Assembly: GCF_018336915.1 (NCBI RefSeq)
Contig: NZ_CP064923.1
Span: 480,001 to 512,000 of the forward strand
Length of the DNA: 32,000 nt
Source: Acaryochloris marina S15
GTDB taxonomy: Bacteria; Cyanobacteriota; Cyanobacteriia; Thermosynechococcales; Thermosynechococcaceae
Reading direction: 5' to 3'
Position numbers and translations under genes: made by a program. Positions 20,215 to 26,396 of this stretch are shown here, one piece after another; position 1 is the stretch's first letter, and each line of letters opens with the position of its first letter. The notes below the pieces were generated by a model. That model ran no database searches, was not told where the DNA came from, and was given only the letters and a program-made list of their open reading frames with translations.

Positions 20215-20877
20215 TCAGTGCTTCCTTGGCTGATAGCGAGAGTAGACGAGCAGATATCCCAAGATTTGTAAGCCGCCTCCAGTCAGGCCAACCCCCAGAA
20301 TGACGGGAAATGAGCTGGAGAGGGTCAGCCACCAACCGTCTGAAATTAAGACATCCTCTTGGCGTTGGTTAATCTGACGATAGGTGATGCGCCTCGGCCA
20401 CTCTTTTAGTCTGTAGCGATATGGGCCAATGGCAGTGGTTTGGGGTTTAGATATCTGGCAAAACCTGGGGAGTGGTTGATCGTCAATCCAGATGAATTTC
20501 CCTTGTTGCAGTTTGTAGAACGGCTTTTTGAAATAGGGCGTGACTAAAAGCATTGGATGCTCTCCCCCACCACAAAGTGTCAGCCCTCCCTTAATGGTGG
20601 GGGTGGCAATGCTGGTTTGAAACGTGCCATTGGTATCGAAAACTTGGATGCGCCCTAACATCTGAGAGAACACATACAGCTGCTTTTGGTCGTCGGCATT
20701 GTGGAGTGCGATCGCAGATGCCCCCACCAACGGAGCAGGTTGATTAAGAGGCGTTCGTTGAAGCAGAATTCCTTGGGTGACACAGAACGCCATTAGGCTG
20801 ATTAACCCCCAGCTACACACCCACATCACTCTTAGATAGAAGGGCTGCTGTTGAGATGTTCGATTGAGGCGTCTCAT
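20215..20877 (-). CDS. Hypothetical membrane-anchored protein
   Basis: 220-aa ORF with an N-terminal TM (VMWVCSWGLISLMAFCV) and a C-terminal TM (FPVILGVGLTGGGLQILGYLLV). Its ATG overlaps the cobB stop (ATGA, 20877-20874). Confidence 0.55.
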   Translation of the reverse strand: MRRLNRTSQQQPFYLRVMWVCSWGLISLMAFCVTQGILLQRTPLNQPAPLVGASAIALHNADDQKQLYVFSQMLGRIQVFDTNGTFQTSIATPTIKGGLTLCGGGEHPMLLVTPYFKKPFYKLQQGKFIWIDDQPLPRFCQISKPQTTAIGPYRYRLKEWPRRITYRQINQRQEDVLISDGWWLTLSSSFPVILGVGLTGGGLQILGYLLVYSRYQPRKH

Positions 20878-21596
20878 GTCAGTAAGGTAGGGAGGATCTC
20901 TTCTGCTACACCCACAATGACCTCGTGAAAATAGGGGTTGGGTTCTGATGGGGCTTCCCGATTAATCAGAATCGTGCGGGCTCCAACATAATCGGCTGAG
21001 CGAACAAAACTGGCGGCGGGCTGCACCGTGCCAGAGGTGCCAATCGCTAGAAATAAATCACAATCTCGAAGGACCTTTTTGCTGTGCCAAGATGCATCTA
21101 AGGGCATGGGTTTTTCGAATAAGACGACATTGGGTAACTGATGGGCATGGCAGATGGAGCATTGAGGGATCTGATCGATATGGGTGGCTTGATCTGCAAA
21201 GACAGGGGCATCGCAGGCAGCATTAGAGCACCGGGTCTCTAGGAGTGATCCATGCAGTTCCACAACGTTTTGGCTGCCCGCCCGTTGGTGTAGTCCGTCA
21301 ATATTTTGGGTGATCAGGGTGAAGTGTTGAGATGAATTCCAATTTTGTTCTAGATCCGCCAGGGCTTGGTGAGCCGCATTGGGAATCGCCGACGCCACAA
21401 CTTCGCGCATAGCCCCCAGGGTTTGCCAAATAAAACTAGGATTATTTTGCCCAGCATCGGCATTGAGCTGATCAGCCGAAATTTCGTTCCAGACTCCGTT
21501 CGGCCCCCGAAAAGGACGAATCCCTGAGGCAACAGAAATCCCGGCGCCCGTCAGAATAACAATGCGTGAGTAGGCCGCTAAATTTAGATCAACCAT
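20874..21596 (-). CDS. cobB: NAD-dependent protein deacylase, Sir2 family
   Basis: Sirtuin motifs GAGISVASGIRPFRG, TQNIDGLH and HG. Zn-ribbon Cys pairs (CSNAAC...CSIC) and GTSGTVQPA. Confidence 0.9.
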   Translation of the reverse strand: MVDLNLAAYSRIVILTGAGISVASGIRPFRGPNGVWNEISADQLNADAGQNNPSFIWQTLGAMREVVASAIPNAAHQALADLEQNWNSSQHFTLITQNIDGLHQRAGSQNVVELHGSLLETRCSNAACDAPVFADQATHIDQIPQCSICHAHQLPNVVLFEKPMPLDASWHSKKVLRDCDLFLAIGTSGTVQPAASFVRSADYVGARTILINREAPSEPNPYFHEVIVGVAEEILPTLLT

Positions 21597-21655: not shown

Positions 21656-21780
21656 TTAAGCTGCAAGAGATAACTCGTCGTTATAGAGGGTTGCAATCAA
21701 GTTACACCGAAGGGAGTAGCGACGGCGACGATTGCGATAGCGCTTGGACAGAATTCTGAAAATCTTCAGACTGGGGTTCA
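21656..21780 (-). pseudogene. Transposase C-terminal remnant (DDE_Tnp_4 / IS5-Harbinger-like)
   Basis: The minus frame ends ...LKIFRILSKRYRNRRRRYSLRCNLIATLYNDELSLAA*. The FRIL..RYRNRR.R..LR.NLIA..YN.EL block is the C-terminal signature I associate with this transposase family. No catalytic domain is present upstream, where the frame instead runs into the VOC gene and attC. Confidence 0.45.
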
Positions 21781-21806
21781 GAGCCGTTTGCAACCAGATG
21801 TTAGGC
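21781..21806 (-). other. attC-6, truncated (only the R''/L'' half)
   Basis: The minus strand reads GAG GCC TAA C: a GCCTAAC box containing the VOC stop codon, as in other cassettes. No partner GTTRRRY arm follows, and the transposase remnant begins about 20 nt later. Confidence 0.35.
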
Positions 21807-22181: not shown

Positions 22182-22210
22182 CTCTGTTCTTATTCGCCGG
22201 GAGAGAGATG

Positions 22211-22303
22211 GCCTAACGGTTTGCTTCACCGGCGCGAGCAAGAACCTAAAATACAAAGCAGATAAGTGATTATTGAGTGTCCGTGTGCAGGCATGGGTTA
22301 GAT
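22211..22303 (-). other. attC-5 recombination site
   Basis: Minus strand: ATCTAAC (22303->22297) ... GTTAGGC (22217->22211). The arms are partly complementary (TGCtTCACCGG / CCGTGTGCAGGCA). The left-arm block CGGCGCGAGC is shared with attC-1 and attC-4. Confidence 0.6.
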
Positions 22304-22323
22304 ATTCTTATAACAGATTCAAG

Positions 22324-22533
22324 TTAGATTAAATCCTCCTCAGAGAGTTGAGCGATTTTCATTAAAGCTTTCAAAGTTCTAATCTTTAAATCTCGATTCT
22401 TGTGAACTGGGATTGATAGAATTCCATCGACGTCAGCTTTTGCATAAATATGATGACTACCAGTTACTCTTTTTAAAGTCCAACCTTTTCGCTCCAAAAT
22501 TTTGCAAAATCGTTTACCTGAAACAGATCTCAT
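22324..22533 (-). CDS. hicA: Type II toxin-antitoxin system HicA family toxin, cassette 5
   Basis: 69 aa. YcfA/HicA pattern (ILERKGWTLKRVTGSHHIY). 4-nt overlap with the upstream hicB. Confidence 0.85.
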   Translation of the reverse strand: MRSVSGKRFCKILERKGWTLKRVTGSHHIYAKADVDGILSIPVHKNRDLKIRTLKALMKIAQLSEEDLI

Positions 22534-22733
22534 ACAGCAATTTCAACTACTTGATCAGGTGATTGAGTCACCTGACGCTCATTAGCAACATCAAGCCAGC
22601 CCTCAATAGCGTCCCTCAAGTTATTTATCACTTCGTCTTTTGTATCCCCTTCAGTAATACAACCAGGAAGTGCAGGAACTTCTGCCCAATAACCTCCTTC
22701 CTCTGCTGAATGGATAACTGCTTTAATCTTCAT
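22530..22733 (-). CDS. hicB: HicB-like (UPF0150) antitoxin, cassette 5
   Basis: 67 aa. MKIKAVIHSAEEGGYWAEVPALPGCITEGDTKDEVINNLRDAIEGWL is the typical HicB N-terminal fold signature. No C-terminal DNA-binding domain is present. Confidence 0.8.
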   Translation of the reverse strand: MKIKAVIHSAEEGGYWAEVPALPGCITEGDTKDEVINNLRDAIEGWLDVANERQVTQSPDQVVEIAV

Positions 22734-22751
22734 AAAATCACTGATTTAACA

Positions 22752-22779
22752 ACATTAACTTCAAATATATTTAAGGCAA
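22752..22779 (-). promoter_or_regulatory. Candidate cassette-internal promoter for hicBA
   Basis: Minus strand: TTGCCT (22779->22774), 16 nt, TAATGT (22757->22752), about 20 nt upstream of the hicB ATG. This is pattern match only. Confidence 0.3.
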
Positions 22780-22829
22780 TCGAATAAACTAATGTATCTG
22801 CGTGGTAAAAGGTTTCAGACAAGTGTGAT

Positions 22830-22920
22830 GGCTAACGGTAGCTGTCAAGGGCGCGAGTAGCAATTGAGAAGAGTTATGTAGCAGTCTAAATCGAGCGTCC
22901 CTTATACGGCGTTGTTAGTC
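22830..22920 (-). other. attC-4 recombination site
   Basis: Minus strand: GACTAAC (22920->22914) ... GTTAGCC (22836->22830). Arm pairing is AAGGGCGCGAG with CTCGAGCGTCCCTT, leaving two unpaired bases on one arm. Confidence 0.7.
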
Positions 22921-22953
22921 ATGAGTAAATACAATTTAGTTGAGGCTAAAGAA

Positions 22954-23142
22954 TTACTGACTTTTTGAGGTTTGGTATCCGCGATCTTCAATAATTGATA
23001 GCTCATACGAGTATTTATCGCACCAGACACCAATATCTTGATACCCTTTAGCGAGAGAATCCAATAGTTCTAAGATTATCTTGAATTTTTCGCCTGAGAC
23101 ACAGTTCTCCAGCTCATCAAGAGTTACTTCTTGGTAGCTCAT
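22954..23142 (-). CDS. Hypothetical small acidic protein, cassette 4 (second gene)
   Basis: 62-aa ORF. Its ATG lies 3 nt after the stop of the preceding 47-codon ORF. No family recognised. Confidence 0.5.
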   Translation of the reverse strand: MSYQEVTLDELENCVSGEKFKIILELLDSLAKGYQDIGVWCDKYSYELSIIEDRGYQTSKSQ

Positions 23143-23145
23143 GCT

Positions 23146-23289
23146 TTATTGCCACCAAAAACGCATAAGGTATCGGCATTCTTCTTGTATGCGGTCATCA
23201 GCTAACCGATATTGCACAATGTTTTGAACAGCACAACGTTGTTCATCGTCTCGAAAATAGCTCTTTAAGTTTAGGAAGTTAACTGTCAT
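23146..23289 (-). CDS. Hypothetical small protein, cassette 4 (first gene)
   Basis: The track ORF 23146-23373 starts inside attC-3. The first ATG inside the cassette is 23289, 8 nt after the GTTAGTC box, giving MTVNFLNLKSYFRDDEQRCAVQNIVQYRLADDRIQEECRYLMRFWWQ (47 aa). Confidence 0.45.
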   Translation of the reverse strand: MTVNFLNLKSYFRDDEQRCAVQNIVQYRLADDRIQEECRYLMRFWWQ

Positions 23290-23297
23290 GGATGTAA

Positions 23298-23360
23298 GAC
23301 TAACGCCTCGCATCAGCGGCTGAGGTAGGCTCGTAGCGCTTGCCGAATCGTTTGTTATGT
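23298..23360 (-). other. attC-3 recombination site (short, 63 bp)
   Basis: Minus strand: ACATAAC (23360->23354) ... GTTAGTC (23304->23298). The arms CAAGCGCTACGAG and CTCAGCCGCTG pair with bulges. It lies between the stop at 23374 and the next ATG at 23289. Confidence 0.55.
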
Positions 23361-23549
23361 GGCATTGCTGCATTCACTCTTCTAGCCACTTCAAATATTT
23401 TGAAAGTTTAACTTCAAACTCAGCTATGGATAAGCAAGCGCCTTCTGCCATTACCGTAGTTTTTTCGGTTTCAATATTTATTATTTCCATATTCAAACAT
23501 ATCGCATGGTCCCATGCTGTAATTCTCGAAATATAAAAATCGGTATCTA

Positions 23550-24503
23550 TAGCAGTCGCCACTCTAATTAGGACGCTAGGTTCAACACATGTTCCATTGC
23601 TTCTCTAAGTGAACTGAAGTGCTCTAATTGGTGTCTAATTCGACTTTTAATCCAAGCCCACGACCGTTCAATCTTATTCAAATCAGGAGAATAGGGTGGC
23701 AAGTACCACACTTCACATCCTGCGGCTTCTACCAGTTGCTCAATTCGCCCTTCCTTATGGAAGGTGGCATTATCAATGACTAACTTCTGCCCCGGTTTGA
23801 GCATCGGTATCAAACAAGTCTCAAGCCAAATTTCAAATACGGTGCGATTGCAAGCCCCTTCAATCGTGAACGGGGCCATGAGCTGCTTTCCTCTCAAAGC
23901 TGCAATCATATTGACTCGTCCACTTCTGCTACCAGACTTTAAAGCATAGACCCGCTCACCTTTGGGACCATAGCCATAGTCATACTCATCTCGATTGTCC
24001 ATCCCTGACTCGTCAGCATAGACGATATCGTCTGGGTCTACTGTTGTTAACTTTTGGACGAACTCAGCCCGTTTGTGCTCATCACGTTGGCGGTAGCCAT
24101 AGGTCTTTTTTTTCGAGTAAATCCAATATTCTTCAGCGCTCTTGAAATAGTACGCTCACTGATTTGCCCCTCCCACAACTCGGCCATCTGAGCTTGGGTT
24201 TTATAGCGATGTTCTTGAGCAAAAGCTCGAAACTTGTCCCAGTCTGTGATTTTGTGGCTATGGCCAAGGTGTTGTCTAGGGATGGGATGAAGATCACCTG
24301 TTTCTGCTTTGAGACGTTGCCATAGATTAATGGTGTTACGACTGATATGAAAGGTGTCACTCGCTTCTGAGGGAGGCATGCCATCAAGTTCAATAGCATC
24401 GATCACTTTGCAACGTAAATCGTAGCTGTAGATTTTAGGCATCCATTGAAAGACATAACAGTATCTCTAGTTTATTATGTCCTGAATAAAATGGCGCTTG
24501 CTA
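23550..24503 (-). mobile_element. IS630-family insertion sequence, ISY100-like (954 bp) with TA target-site duplication
   Basis: Imperfect terminal inverted repeats: TAGCAGTCGCCACTCTAATTAGGAC versus the reverse complement TAGCAAGCGCCATTTTATTCAGGAC (18 of 25 match). It is flanked by TA at 23548-49 and 24504-05. It encodes an HTH + DDE transposase in two frames. Confidence 0.85.
23568..24442 (-). CDS. IS630 family transposase (two frames joined by a -1 shift on an A8 run)
   Basis: Frame 1 (24442->) reads MPKIYSYDLRCKVIDAIELDG...IGFTRKK (HTH). A -1 slip on A AAA AAA (complement of T8 at 24106-24113) continues KTYGYRQRDEHKRAEFVQKLTTVDPDDIVYADESGMDNRDEYDYGYGPKGERV...DNATFHK...LPPYSPDLNKIERSWAWIK (DDE). 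Confidence 0.85.
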
Positions 24504-24641
24504 TAAGTCTACATAAGCAGAACCATGTCCTGTGTCAGTAAATTTTATTTCGTTGCATTTTAAGCAGAATAATTCCTGGTTATGCTCGAACCAAGATTTA
24601 AGAATTCTTACTGGCACTGATTCATCGTAGTGTCTCATGCC

Positions 24642-24732
24642 ACATAACGACCCACATCACCGGGCGGCCGCCAGAGACGTGGATTTCAGATGATGCACCC
24701 GACGGCCGCTCCGGTGCATGTGATTGTTATGT
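24642..24732 (-). other. attC-2 recombination site
   Basis: Minus strand: ACATAAC (24732->24726) ... GTTATGT (24648->24642). The arms CACATCACCGGGCGGCCG and CGGCCGCTCCGGTGCATGTG pair over about 18 bp, with two extra bases on one arm only. Confidence 0.8.
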
Positions 24733-24738
24733 TGCTTT

Positions 24739-25218
24739 TCAGAAGGCGATTGGTTTCTGGAGTTCAAGCGCGCAGTTTACCAGTTCGGTCAATTGGCCGC
24801 GAAACGTATCCAAGTATTGTTGGTCTTCTTCGTTGTCGCATGCGACTGAGCTGAAGTGTGCAAGTTCTTCGCGCACCAGATTAACTTGTTGAAGCGTTAA
24901 GTAGTCTCCGCCGTGGATGCCGTTGTAAATGACCTTGGAAAGGATCGTCGGAAACTTCTCGGCGTTCCGTTGAAGTGTTTCTCGGAGAAACGCCACAAAC
25001 GCGATGTTACCGATGTAATGATGCAGGAAAGTGCAATCTTCGTGATCGCAGGCTTGCTGGTGAGTCCACGCATAAATGGCGATAGCTGCATCGACGGTTT
25101 CGTGCGCACAGTTGATTGATCCGTCGGGGGAGACTTCGATTTCGATGCCCTGCGGCGGTGGTGTTTTGTGCCGTCCGGTTTCGTAGCAGTTGCAGTAGAC
25201 GAACGCATCCAATCCCAT
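24739..25218 (-). CDS. Hypothetical Cys/His-rich protein, cassette 2
   Basis: The track ORF starts at 25260, inside attC-1. The first ATG inside the cassette is 25218 (MGLDAFVYCNCYETGRHK...). 159 aa, visibly GC-richer than its neighbours, no family recognised. Confidence 0.6.
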   Translation of the reverse strand: MGLDAFVYCNCYETGRHKTPPPQGIEIEVSPDGSINCAHETVDAAIAIYAWTHQQACDHEDCTFLHHYIGNIAFVAFLRETLQRNAEKFPTILSKVIYNGIHGGDYLTLQQVNLVREELAHFSSVACDNEEDQQYLDTFRGQLTELVNCALELQKPIAF

Positions 25219-25242
25219 TGTGGTTTCAACTACGCCTTTGCA

Positions 25243-25336
25243 ACATAACGGCTCGGCCATCAGGAGCGCGACCGAATATATTTAAAGAGAAGCTGAGGCG
25301 TTTTAGTCGAGCGTCCCTTGCATGTGCTGGTTAGAC
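25243..25336 (-). other. attC-1 recombination site
   Basis: Minus strand: GTCTAAC (25336->25330) ... GTTATGT (25249->25243). It shares the blocks GGAGCGCGAC / GTCGAGCGTCCCTT with attC-4. Confidence 0.7.
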
Positions 25337-25386
25337 AACACTGGCACTGTGAGCGAGGATTCTTACAAGTTTCGATATCAGGAAAC

Positions 25387-25758
25387 TTAAATCCAGCGTC
25401 CAAATCTAAAAATATCTTGACAAGATATATATTCAATAACCCATGAACGATCTGAGGCAACTATTAGAACATCTTTTTGATAGAAATACCGTTCTGGTTT
25501 ATTCCGTAGTGAACTCCAATCTATATGCTCCAATGCGGACCATGTATGATCAACAAGAATTGCTTTAACGGAAGCTTCAATATTTTTGGACTGTAACCAA
25601 GAGGTCAGTTTTTGATAATGCCCTTGATCCTCTCTTACAGCTAATATCCACTCACTCGTTTCATCAACTCCATATTCCCACTTAACCTCATGTAAATGAT
25701 GCTCCACAAGTTTTCTGAGATCTCGAAGTCGCAGCGCTGGATTGAGGAGATCTACCAT
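25387..25758 (-). CDS. Hypothetical protein, cassette 1
   Basis: 123 aa from ATG 25758 (the track uses TTG 25767). The ATG lies 9 nt after the GTTAGAC junction box. No family recognised. Confidence 0.6.
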   Translation of the reverse strand: MVDLLNPALRLRDLRKLVEHHLHEVKWEYGVDETSEWILAVREDQGHYQKLTSWLQSKNIEASVKAILVDHTWSALEHIDWSSLRNKPERYFYQKDVLIVASDRSWVIEYISCQDIFRFGRWI

Positions 25759-25767
25759 ATCAAGCAA

Positions 25768-25841
25768 GTCTAACTATAATTAGAAGGCAAATTGCCTCTT
25801 GACACGAAAAAAATAAGAGCTAATTTTCGTCTCAAAGCCAA
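25768..25841 (-). other. attI-like region (junction core GTTAGAC; simple site about 25768-25785)
   Basis: Minus strand: TCTAA-ttatag-TTAGAC, an inverted pair around a 6-nt spacer that ends in a GTTRRRY box directly upstream of cassette 1. The adjacent palindrome AGGCAAaTTGCCT is at 25785-25797. Opposed promoter-like hexamers lie in 25799-25841. Confidence 0.5.
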
Positions 25842-26032
25842 GCTATCTCTACATTAGCATCTCTAATCAAAAACCAAACCTTACGGAGATTTACCGATAT
25901 GCAAACTTGAATCTGAATGTCTACATATAAGACAGGAAAAGCATTTTCAGCAGATCCATCATGCAGTCACGAGGAACGTTAATAGGCAAAATAACCGTAT
26001 AAGTCCCAACATTAGTTAATAACAGGCACTCT

Positions 26033-26396
26033 ATGCCACCCTGCAAACTCCTTGACAAGTCCGTGATGTAATGCAAACCAAGTATTACACATACAGCCTC
26101 GAAAAAAGTGGATCCAACACTTTATTCTCTTCCACAACAAACGTTATCCCAAAGAAATGGCTGAACTCGAAGTTGAAGCTTTTCTGACCGTAAGCGAACA
26201 TGTTTCTGCTTCAACCCAAAATCGAGCCCTCTGTACCCTGATATTTTTGTACTGATACATTCTTAAACAGCTTCTGGCTGAAACGATGGATGCAGCTCGT
26301 GCCAAACGATCACAACATCAGACTTCTTGCAGAATAGACCTCTTGCTTGATCTCCAGGATGCTCAGCGGCACAAACCCCAGTTGTCGCGAAGATAA
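26033..26396 (+). pseudogene. intI: Integron integrase (tyrosine recombinase) pseudogene: N-terminal SAM-like domain only, with frameshifts, a nonsense codon and 3' truncation
   Basis: Three successive frames read MPPCKLLDK / (Q)VRDVMQTKYYTYSLEKS / WIQHFILFHNKRYPKEMAELEVEAFLTVSEHVSASTQNRALCTLIFLY*YILKQLLAETMDAARAKRSQHQ.... They are colinear with the IntI N-termini as I recall them (..SVREFMQTRYY..IEAYLHWI..I.FHNKKHP..EVEEFL..V...TQ..AL..L.FLY.E.L). The catalytic R-H-R-Y domain is absent. Confidence 0.7.

Follow-up and report, generated by a model that had tools for sequence, protein, structure and literature searches.

Within the 32,000-nt stretch of Acaryochloris marina S15 DNA analyzed here (positions 480,001 to 512,000 of contig NZ_CP064923.1; referred to as the window, with all coordinates given in its numbering), a 954-bp insertion sequence (IS) of the IS630 family splits a gene that belongs to the TriTu immunity protein family at the level of its Pfam profile. 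We consider it almost certain that the element was inserted into a TA dinucleotide inside this single integron cassette gene and that the TA was duplicated upon insertion. In the sequence of events we propose, a recently active IS630-family element would have moved by cut-and-paste transposition into the TA at the end of codon 45 (TTA) in a 102-codon gene, leaving a copy of this TA on either side. The interrupted gene would be the third cassette of a chromosomal array with a decayed integrase in an Acaryochloris-type cyanobacterium, and the two-frame transposase of the element would be read through a run of A residues by either transcriptional slippage or -1 ribosomal frameshifting. The event itself is an ordinary one, in which an already annotated IS landed in a TA inside a cassette gene, and it leaves current understanding unchanged. 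The features that define the insertion are as follows.

23550 to 24503, minus strand: IS630-family insertion sequence, 954 bp, delimited by empty-site comparison with contigs L001-L003 and L023
24504 to 24505, unstranded: TA target-site duplication, transposase-proximal copy, with a single TA in the empty site of four contigs
23548 to 23549, unstranded: TA target-site duplication, transposase-distal copy, identified from the empty site and other copies of the element
24479 to 24503, minus strand: terminal inverted repeat upstream of the transposase (TAGCAAGCGCCATTTTATTCAGGAC), identified by its match to the opposite end
23550 to 23574, plus strand: terminal inverted repeat of the opposite end (TAGCAGTCGCCACTCTAATTAGGAC), likewise identified by its match to the other repeat
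24504 to 24638, minus strand: codons 1-45 of the interrupted TriTu-family cassette gene, in the same register as the intact alleles
23374 to 23547, minus strand: codons 46-102 and stop codon of the interrupted gene, from the joined open reading frame (ORF) and its Pfam TriTu match

The uninterrupted version of this site is present in four related assemblies, where the intact gene occupies the same chromosomal place as in the window. Four Logan contigs (L001, L002, L003 and L023) encode an intact 102-amino acid (aa) protein, represented by P0001 and its cluster mate P0137, with approximately 97-98% identity at the protein level. The neighbours on the integrase side of the window are present in three of the four contigs (DUF6348, with DUF2237, PAP2 and NDK additionally found in L001 and L002), and L001 and L023 extend beyond the array to the SIR2, TerC and PsaM genes. 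When each of the four contigs was aligned to the window by BLAST, one block ended at 24504, the next started at 23549, and the two overlapped on the contig by exactly 2 bp, a textbook sign of an insertion that duplicates its TA target. All four contigs read ...GTAGACTTAGATACCG... across this point, the sequence of the window minus the element and one TA, and the TA at the insertion point is found once in the empty sites and twice in the occupied one. The 2-bp overlap together with the single TA therefore fixes the element at 954 bp, from 23550 to 24503. The initial annotation of the window had proposed an IS630 element with these limits, TA flanks and 25-bp imperfect inverted repeats, and both the family profile and the empty site agree with it.

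On the plus strand, the TA at 23548-23549 is followed by TAGCAGTCGCCACTCTAATTAGGAC, while the far end reads GTCCTGAATAAAATGGCGCTTGCTA directly before the TA at 24504-24505. Pairing of 23550-23574 with the reverse complement of 24479-24503 matches 19 of the 25 positions. Related elements of A. marina AP026075 and Gloeobacter likewise carry the motifs TAGC..GTCGCCA and AGGAC at their ends. The element displays the characteristics of the IS630 family, namely a match to the family profile, a TA duplication and short imperfect terminal inverted repeats, and its transposase is encoded in the same orientation as the cassette genes (minus strand).

Removal of the IS and one TA in silico joins the two gene fragments in frame into a 102-codon ORF that reads ...GSAYVDL followed by DTDFYISRITAW... 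across the junction. The complete product consists of MRHYDESVPVRILKSWFEHNQELFCLKCNEIKFTDTGHGSAYVDL joined to DTDFYISRITAWDHAICLNMEIINIETEKTTVMAEGACLSIAEFEVKLSKYLKWLEE, with the junction between residues 45 and 46. This restoration had been predicted by the initial annotation, and the four intact alleles match the register of the joined sequence. In the occupied site, the 45-codon upstream fragment (24638 to 24504) is stopped by a TAG at 24503-24501, which represents the first three bases of the element. On the downstream side, the start codon of the called 62-codon ORF (23374-23562, minus strand) is a GTG at 23560-23562 that lies inside the IS end, so that its earlier dismissal as an artefact was correct.

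The restored protein matches the Pfam family TriTu (PF24689) with an E value of 2.7e-13 and 50 bits (cutoff 27), and this match spans the junction, aligning residues 14-97 with positions 4-89 of the 91 in the profile. A search of solved structures with the same protein returned TriTu (7zhm_C) as the sole match, covering residues 40-72 and thus also spanning the junction, with sayvdldtdfyisritawd aligned to siiidfeddryisrftvwd. Uninterrupted homologs, the search for which had been suggested along with the original prediction, were recovered from 5.8 billion proteins and comprise the 102-aa P0001 with 98% identity and the 106-aa P0002 with 62% identity. A protein-based scan of the GTDB representative genomes yielded no relative of the restored ORF. 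Because the TriTu match crosses the junction and uninterrupted homologs exist, the joined ORF is a real gene, and it is predicted from its profile match to encode a TriTu-family immunity protein, an assignment made at the family level. TriTu itself is the immunity protein that pairs with TreTu, a Salmonella Rhs toxin with ADP-ribosyltransferase activity towards EF-Tu (PMC9825190).

The insertion would have inactivated the gene, since it is left truncated. Compared to the four intact alleles, the interrupted allele carries two private amino-acid changes, H3 in place of N (24630-24632) and K74 in place of E (23461-23463), and no private silent change. This pattern is compatible with relaxed selection; the changes are too few to carry weight.

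The transposase of the element is distributed over two ORFs in different frames, which a -1 change at a tract of eight A residues would fuse into a 291-aa IS630 transposase.

24047 to 24442, minus strand: transposase orfA, 131 aa, DNA-binding helix-turn-helix (HTH) part (Pfam HTH_Tnp_IS630, 5.9e-07; HTH_23)
23568 to 24002, minus strand: transposase orfB, 144 aa from the first ATG, DDE catalytic domain (Pfam DDE_3, 1.4e-34)
24106 to 24113, minus strand: A8 tract (T8 on the plus strand) at which the -1 frame change is needed to fuse orfA and orfB, identified from the fusion product and present in all copies

The fused protein scores 192.9 bits against the NCBIfam IS630 equivalog NF033545 (cutoff 100). 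It is reported as 100% identical over the whole length to P0003 (QUY43148.1), a 290-aa "IS630 family transposase [Acaryochloris marina]", and the same element is already annotated under this name in public Acaryochloris genomes. Besides several variants, which stem from Acaryochloris sp. "Moss Beach" and an A. marina genome (5.88-Mb contig), the 90% cluster of P0003 includes the 131-aa and 144-aa products as separate entries, encoded on Logan, ENA and JGI contigs.

Nine further copies of the element were compared with the copy in the window, six of them from the chromosome and plasmids of Moss Beach, one from an ENA contig and two from Logan contigs. They are 99.1-99.6% identical to the window copy over all 954 bp (4-9 bases differ), and all copies start with TAGCAAGCGCC, end with GGCGA(C/A)TGCTA, have a TA on both sides and contain the A8 tract. 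The only variation at the ends is a single position (C or A) at the transposase-distal end. A comparison of this kind had been put forward as a check on the proposed limits of the element, and the shared ends and TA flanks of the nine copies bear them out. Two of the copies share their flanks and one contig stops at the TA, which leaves six different sites for the remaining copies. None of the copies examined is inside the integron cassette or next to a called integron gene. A scan of the GTDB representative genomes with a DNA pattern spanning the A-tract did not detect the IS.

The split transposase raises the question of whether this IS copy is dead, with the division into 131 and 144 aa being an inactivating frameshift and the insertion a fossil. 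No single ORF covers the transposase, and ISY100, the studied cyanobacterial relative, has one ORF. However, the same A8 tract is present in all ten copies examined, which identifies the split as a conserved recoding feature rather than damage. Likewise, relatives of 41-86% identity (L014, L015 and L018-L021) have an A-run and a change of frame at or close to the junction of orfA and orfB, which fits slippage and not decay. The runs and the changes needed in these relatives are listed below.

A. marina AP026075 (86% protein identity): A9C, +1 needed
Gloeobacter violaceus: A8G, -1 needed
Leptolyngbya boryana: A7G, -1 needed
ISAcma31 of A. marina MBIC11017: A8G, -1 needed
Piscirickettsia salmonis (41% identity): A8G, -1 needed
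Gloeothece PCC 7822: A8 run about 20 nt upstream, +1 needed

Similarly, the full-length plasmid matches to the transposase that were listed all align in two or three pieces, and the recorded product of the transposase is 290 aa long, for a gene span of 875 nt that is not directly translatable. We therefore regard a dead copy as improbable, and the IS in the window is probably still functional. The retention of the A-run while the direction of the required shift varies points to homopolymer slippage, either by RNA polymerase or by the ribosome, and the variable direction is a hint of slippage during transcription, not of a fixed site for ribosomal frameshifting. Frame changes have been reported in the IS630 family, including transcriptional realignment in a Roseiflexus IS630 element (reviewed in PMC5009743).

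The interrupted gene is part of an integron array with the following landmarks.

25768 to 25774, minus strand: GTTAGAC core at the array start (attI side), with similarity to L001-L003 ending at 25768-25770
about 26070 to 26357, plus strand: decayed integron-integrase remnant, N-terminal part only, with in-frame stop and frameshifts (TIGR02249 match)
25336 to 25243, minus strand: attC-1, with xxxTAAC and GTTRxxx boxes
24732 to 24642, minus strand: attC-2, which closes cassette 2 and precedes the interrupted gene, an ACATAAC...GTTATGT imperfect palindrome
23360 to 23298, minus strand: attC-3, 63 nt, belonging to the interrupted cassette, ACATAAC...GTTAGTC, identified by core boxes and position
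22920 to 22830, minus strand: attC-4, with xxxTAAC and GTTRxxx boxes
22303 to 22211, minus strand: attC-5, with xxxTAAC and GTTRxxx boxes

The restored ORF starts 3 nt past the GTTATGT box (24648 to 24642, minus strand) and stops 13 nt short of the ACATAAC box (23360 to 23354). The proposal that it represents exactly one cassette, based on these two spacings, was borne out by the breakpoints near the GTTATGT box and by the geometry of the distant homolog. The latter (P0002, 62% identical) is encoded on an 808-bp contig (L022; GCA_024449835.1, contig JAANTA012639318.1, 300-808) between two near-identical attC sites of another sequence family, and its ATG is likewise positioned 3 nt past the 7-nt box. 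It follows from this arrangement that the restored ORF is exactly one cassette and that it has moved between integrons. The upstream neighbour of the TriTu cassette varies among the related strains: the window has a 173-aa ORF there, L001-L003 carry DUF7683, and L023 has a TIR-domain gene. With L001-L003, similarity sets in at the GTTATGT box (24648); with L023 it extends to 24667, some 19 nt inside the 3' arm of the attC, since the two attC sites have similar 3' arms. In L001, the same kind of attC site follows each of its cassettes.

The integrase remnant abuts the DUF6348 gene. Its conceptual translation ...WIQHFILFHNKRYPKEMAELEVEAFLTVSEHVSASTQNRALCTLIFLY*... (the asterisk marking the stop) matches TIGR02249 at 8e-16, far below the whole-protein cutoff, and the less damaged version in L002 matches at 1.3e-20. 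As only the N-terminal part is left and this contains a stop and frameshifts, the integrase is dead, and the array within the window is in practice an attC cluster without a working integrase. The literature on Acaryochloris and integrons yielded nothing specific.

The flanking repeats could in principle be another type of intergenic repeat rather than attC sites, in which case the gene would not be a mobile cassette. Four of the five folded sites, attC-3 among them, fold no better than shuffled sequence, and no intact integrase is present in the window. The exception is attC-2, with a DNA fold of -25.1 kcal/mol (z -4.78). Folding energy is a poor test here, and the first sequence in the folding comparison was offset by a few bases. 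As attC-2 alone surpasses the shuffled sequences by its fold, the case for attC sites rests on comparison, i.e. the core boxes, the integrase remnant and the breakpoints between strains. The repeats have xxxTAAC...GTTRxxx core boxes with related inner arms, an integron-integrase remnant is located at the array head, the cassette content differs between strains with breakpoints at or near the GTT boxes, and the distant homolog is bracketed by two such sites as well. With this combination, a repeat of another kind is very improbable.

Several further observations were made on this array. Cassette 2 (24642-25248, including attC-2; 173-aa ORF without Pfam match) has a G+C content of 52%, compared to 36-41% in cassettes 1, 3, 4 and 5, and its attC-2 is unusually G+C-rich and stable; the composition suggests an origin different from that of its neighbours. 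Cassette 5 (22324-22733, minus strand) encodes a HicB/HicA toxin-antitoxin pair that is kept in all related strains where the contig reaches this far. A comparison of L001 (7840-8000) with L002 (4190-4350) revealed a deletion of about 20 nt in L001 that takes out the attC 5' box and part of the arm between DUF7683 and TriTu, lengthens the DUF7683 ORF (136 vs 119 aa) and effectively merges two cassettes. The array ends irregularly (window 21668-21806; L001 9924-10175), the window having an attC-like 5' half GCCTAAC...GGTTGCAA and no clear 3' box, and the point from which it is again similar to L001, 21728, does not correspond to a GTT core. As their last cassette, the window and L023 both have a glyoxalase-family gene, where L001 carries a different gene of 146 aa. 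Just beyond the last attC-like site (20215-21596, minus strand), a 240-aa SIR2-family gene overlaps by 4 nt with a 220-aa ORF without Pfam match, and this pair could be a two-gene defence module.

That the insertion happened at this site, rather than being lost from it elsewhere, is a direction of events that we infer from the strains compared. The reverse, an IS ancestral at the site that was precisely excised in the other strains so that the intact gene is derived, would draw on the ability of cut-and-paste elements of this family to excise (PMC2170065) and on the small number of alleles compared, which is five only. Yet the ORF is intact in all four related strains as well as in the 62%-identical homolog from an unrelated integron, the Pfam family profile is continuous through the insertion site, and the IS copy differs by 4-9 bases in 954 from copies elsewhere, which fits recent movement; ancestral presence is hardly credible against this evidence. 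An assembly artefact with a repeat misplaced inside the gene, as might be suspected because ISs are multicopy and break short-read assemblies and because one Logan contig ends 25 nt into the IS, can be dismissed with equal assurance, given that both junctions carry the expected TA duplication, that the flanks rejoin in frame and that this same contig, from a separate assembly of SRR12447961 (L017), is 100% identical to 25855-24479 of the window, including the 5' gene fragment, the upstream junction and 25 nt of the element, with the reservation that contig and window may derive from the same reads.

Several points weigh against the interpretation of the locus as a recent IS630 insertion into a TriTu-family cassette gene. 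The similarity of the restored protein to the solved TriTu structure is weak (E 0.0095), so that the assignment stays at the level of the family. A cognate toxin gene was not seen in the window, and the neighbouring cassettes, both here and at the related loci, yielded no toxin domain; without a toxin gene beside the cassette, the gene would be an orphan immunity gene. The fold of attC-3 is no better than that of its shuffles (z -0.88), leaving core boxes and position as its support, and no synteny break was found at attC-3 in the strains compared. Only one copy of the IS is present in the window, where the visible part of the genome is 32 kb. Finally, the loss of gene function, the polarity of the insertion and the mechanism of recoding are features that we infer.

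With regard to the remainder of the array, the initial annotation had pointed out that the insertion places about 1 kb, with any terminators or promoters of the IS, between the attI-proximal promoter region and cassettes 4-6. The geometry is as described, with 956 bp inserted upstream of these cassettes. A consensus scan of 22200-26100 detected neither a terminator-like site on the sense strand of the IS nor a promoter-like site near attI; the overall count of promoter-like sites in this region was below the shuffled expectation, and the scan speaks neither for nor against a polar effect. The ORF of cassette 4 carries a TTA to TAA nonsense change (stop at 23146-23148, minus strand) that is private to the window among the five strains, and it is continuous in L001, L002, L003 and L023 with 119-139 aa as called. 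This change fits relaxed selection and is too little to carry weight. The integrase remnant, the split third cassette, the private nonsense change in the next cassette and the two private replacements unaccompanied by silent ones together raise a broader view in which the insertion belongs to a series of steps by which a silenced cassette array visibly decays, its integrase being already a remnant. We consider this view unlikely at present. If the IS does cut transcription from the array head, closely related Acaryochloris strains would form a natural time series of chromosomal integron erosion, and an orphan TriTu-type cassette would, if that is what the gene is, indicate that strains differ in how well they resist ADP-ribosylating contact toxins.

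The genus Acaryochloris is known for its many mobile elements, and the locus provides a clean, dated example of IS630 activity in this genus. For annotation purposes, the ORFs at 23374-23562 and 24501-24638 are the halves of one TriTu-family gene, the two transposase ORFs represent one recoded gene, and the whole region is a chromosomal array of integron cassettes that lacks a working integrase. The locus further shows that TriTu-type immunity genes travel as integron cassettes.

Members of the IS1111-attC group are IS elements that target attC sites in integrons, while IS630 elements insert at a plain TA anywhere. The present case resembles the former in that an IS is found within a cassette array; in contrast, the IS here sits in coding sequence at a plain TA and shows no sign of attC targeting. 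Compared to TriTu (PDB 7ZHM; PMC9825190), the restored protein passes the Pfam threshold and has the ...D..YISR.T.WD... core in common, whereas the overall similarity is distant and the gene is a lone integron cassette without an adjoining toxin gene. Among studied elements, ISY100 (ISTcSa) of Synechocystis sp. PCC 6803, with 947 bp, 24-bp imperfect repeats and a single 282-aa ORF (PMC2170065), shares with the element described here the cyanobacterial host, the size (947 vs 954 bp), imperfect repeats of similar length (24 vs 25 bp), insertion at TA with duplication of the TA, and a transposase with N-terminal HTH and C-terminal DDE parts. The main difference is the single 282-aa ORF of ISY100, as opposed to the frame change at A8 needed for a protein of about 290 aa. 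Among the best 120 protein and the best 60 plasmid matches to the transposase, none comes from Synechocystis PCC 6803, and a tblastn comparison with bases 1-100,000 of its plasmid pSYSM gave no match, ISY100 being described as chromosomal. The earlier designation "ISY100-like" consequently holds for size, repeat length and TA target, does not extend to the two-frame transposase, and refers to the layout as described, not to a demonstrated close kinship.

The nearest element with an ISfinder-style name in annotated records is ISAcma31, an IS630-like element of the A. marina MBIC11017 plasmids. It has an A8G tract and a -1 frame change at the same point, but with approximately 50% protein identity it is a different IS. 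The copies in Acaryochloris marina and Moss Beach (QUY43148.1; CP071717, CP071719 and CP071724), on the other hand, are the same element with the same ends, TA flanks and A8 tract, and differ from the copy in the window by their insertion sites.

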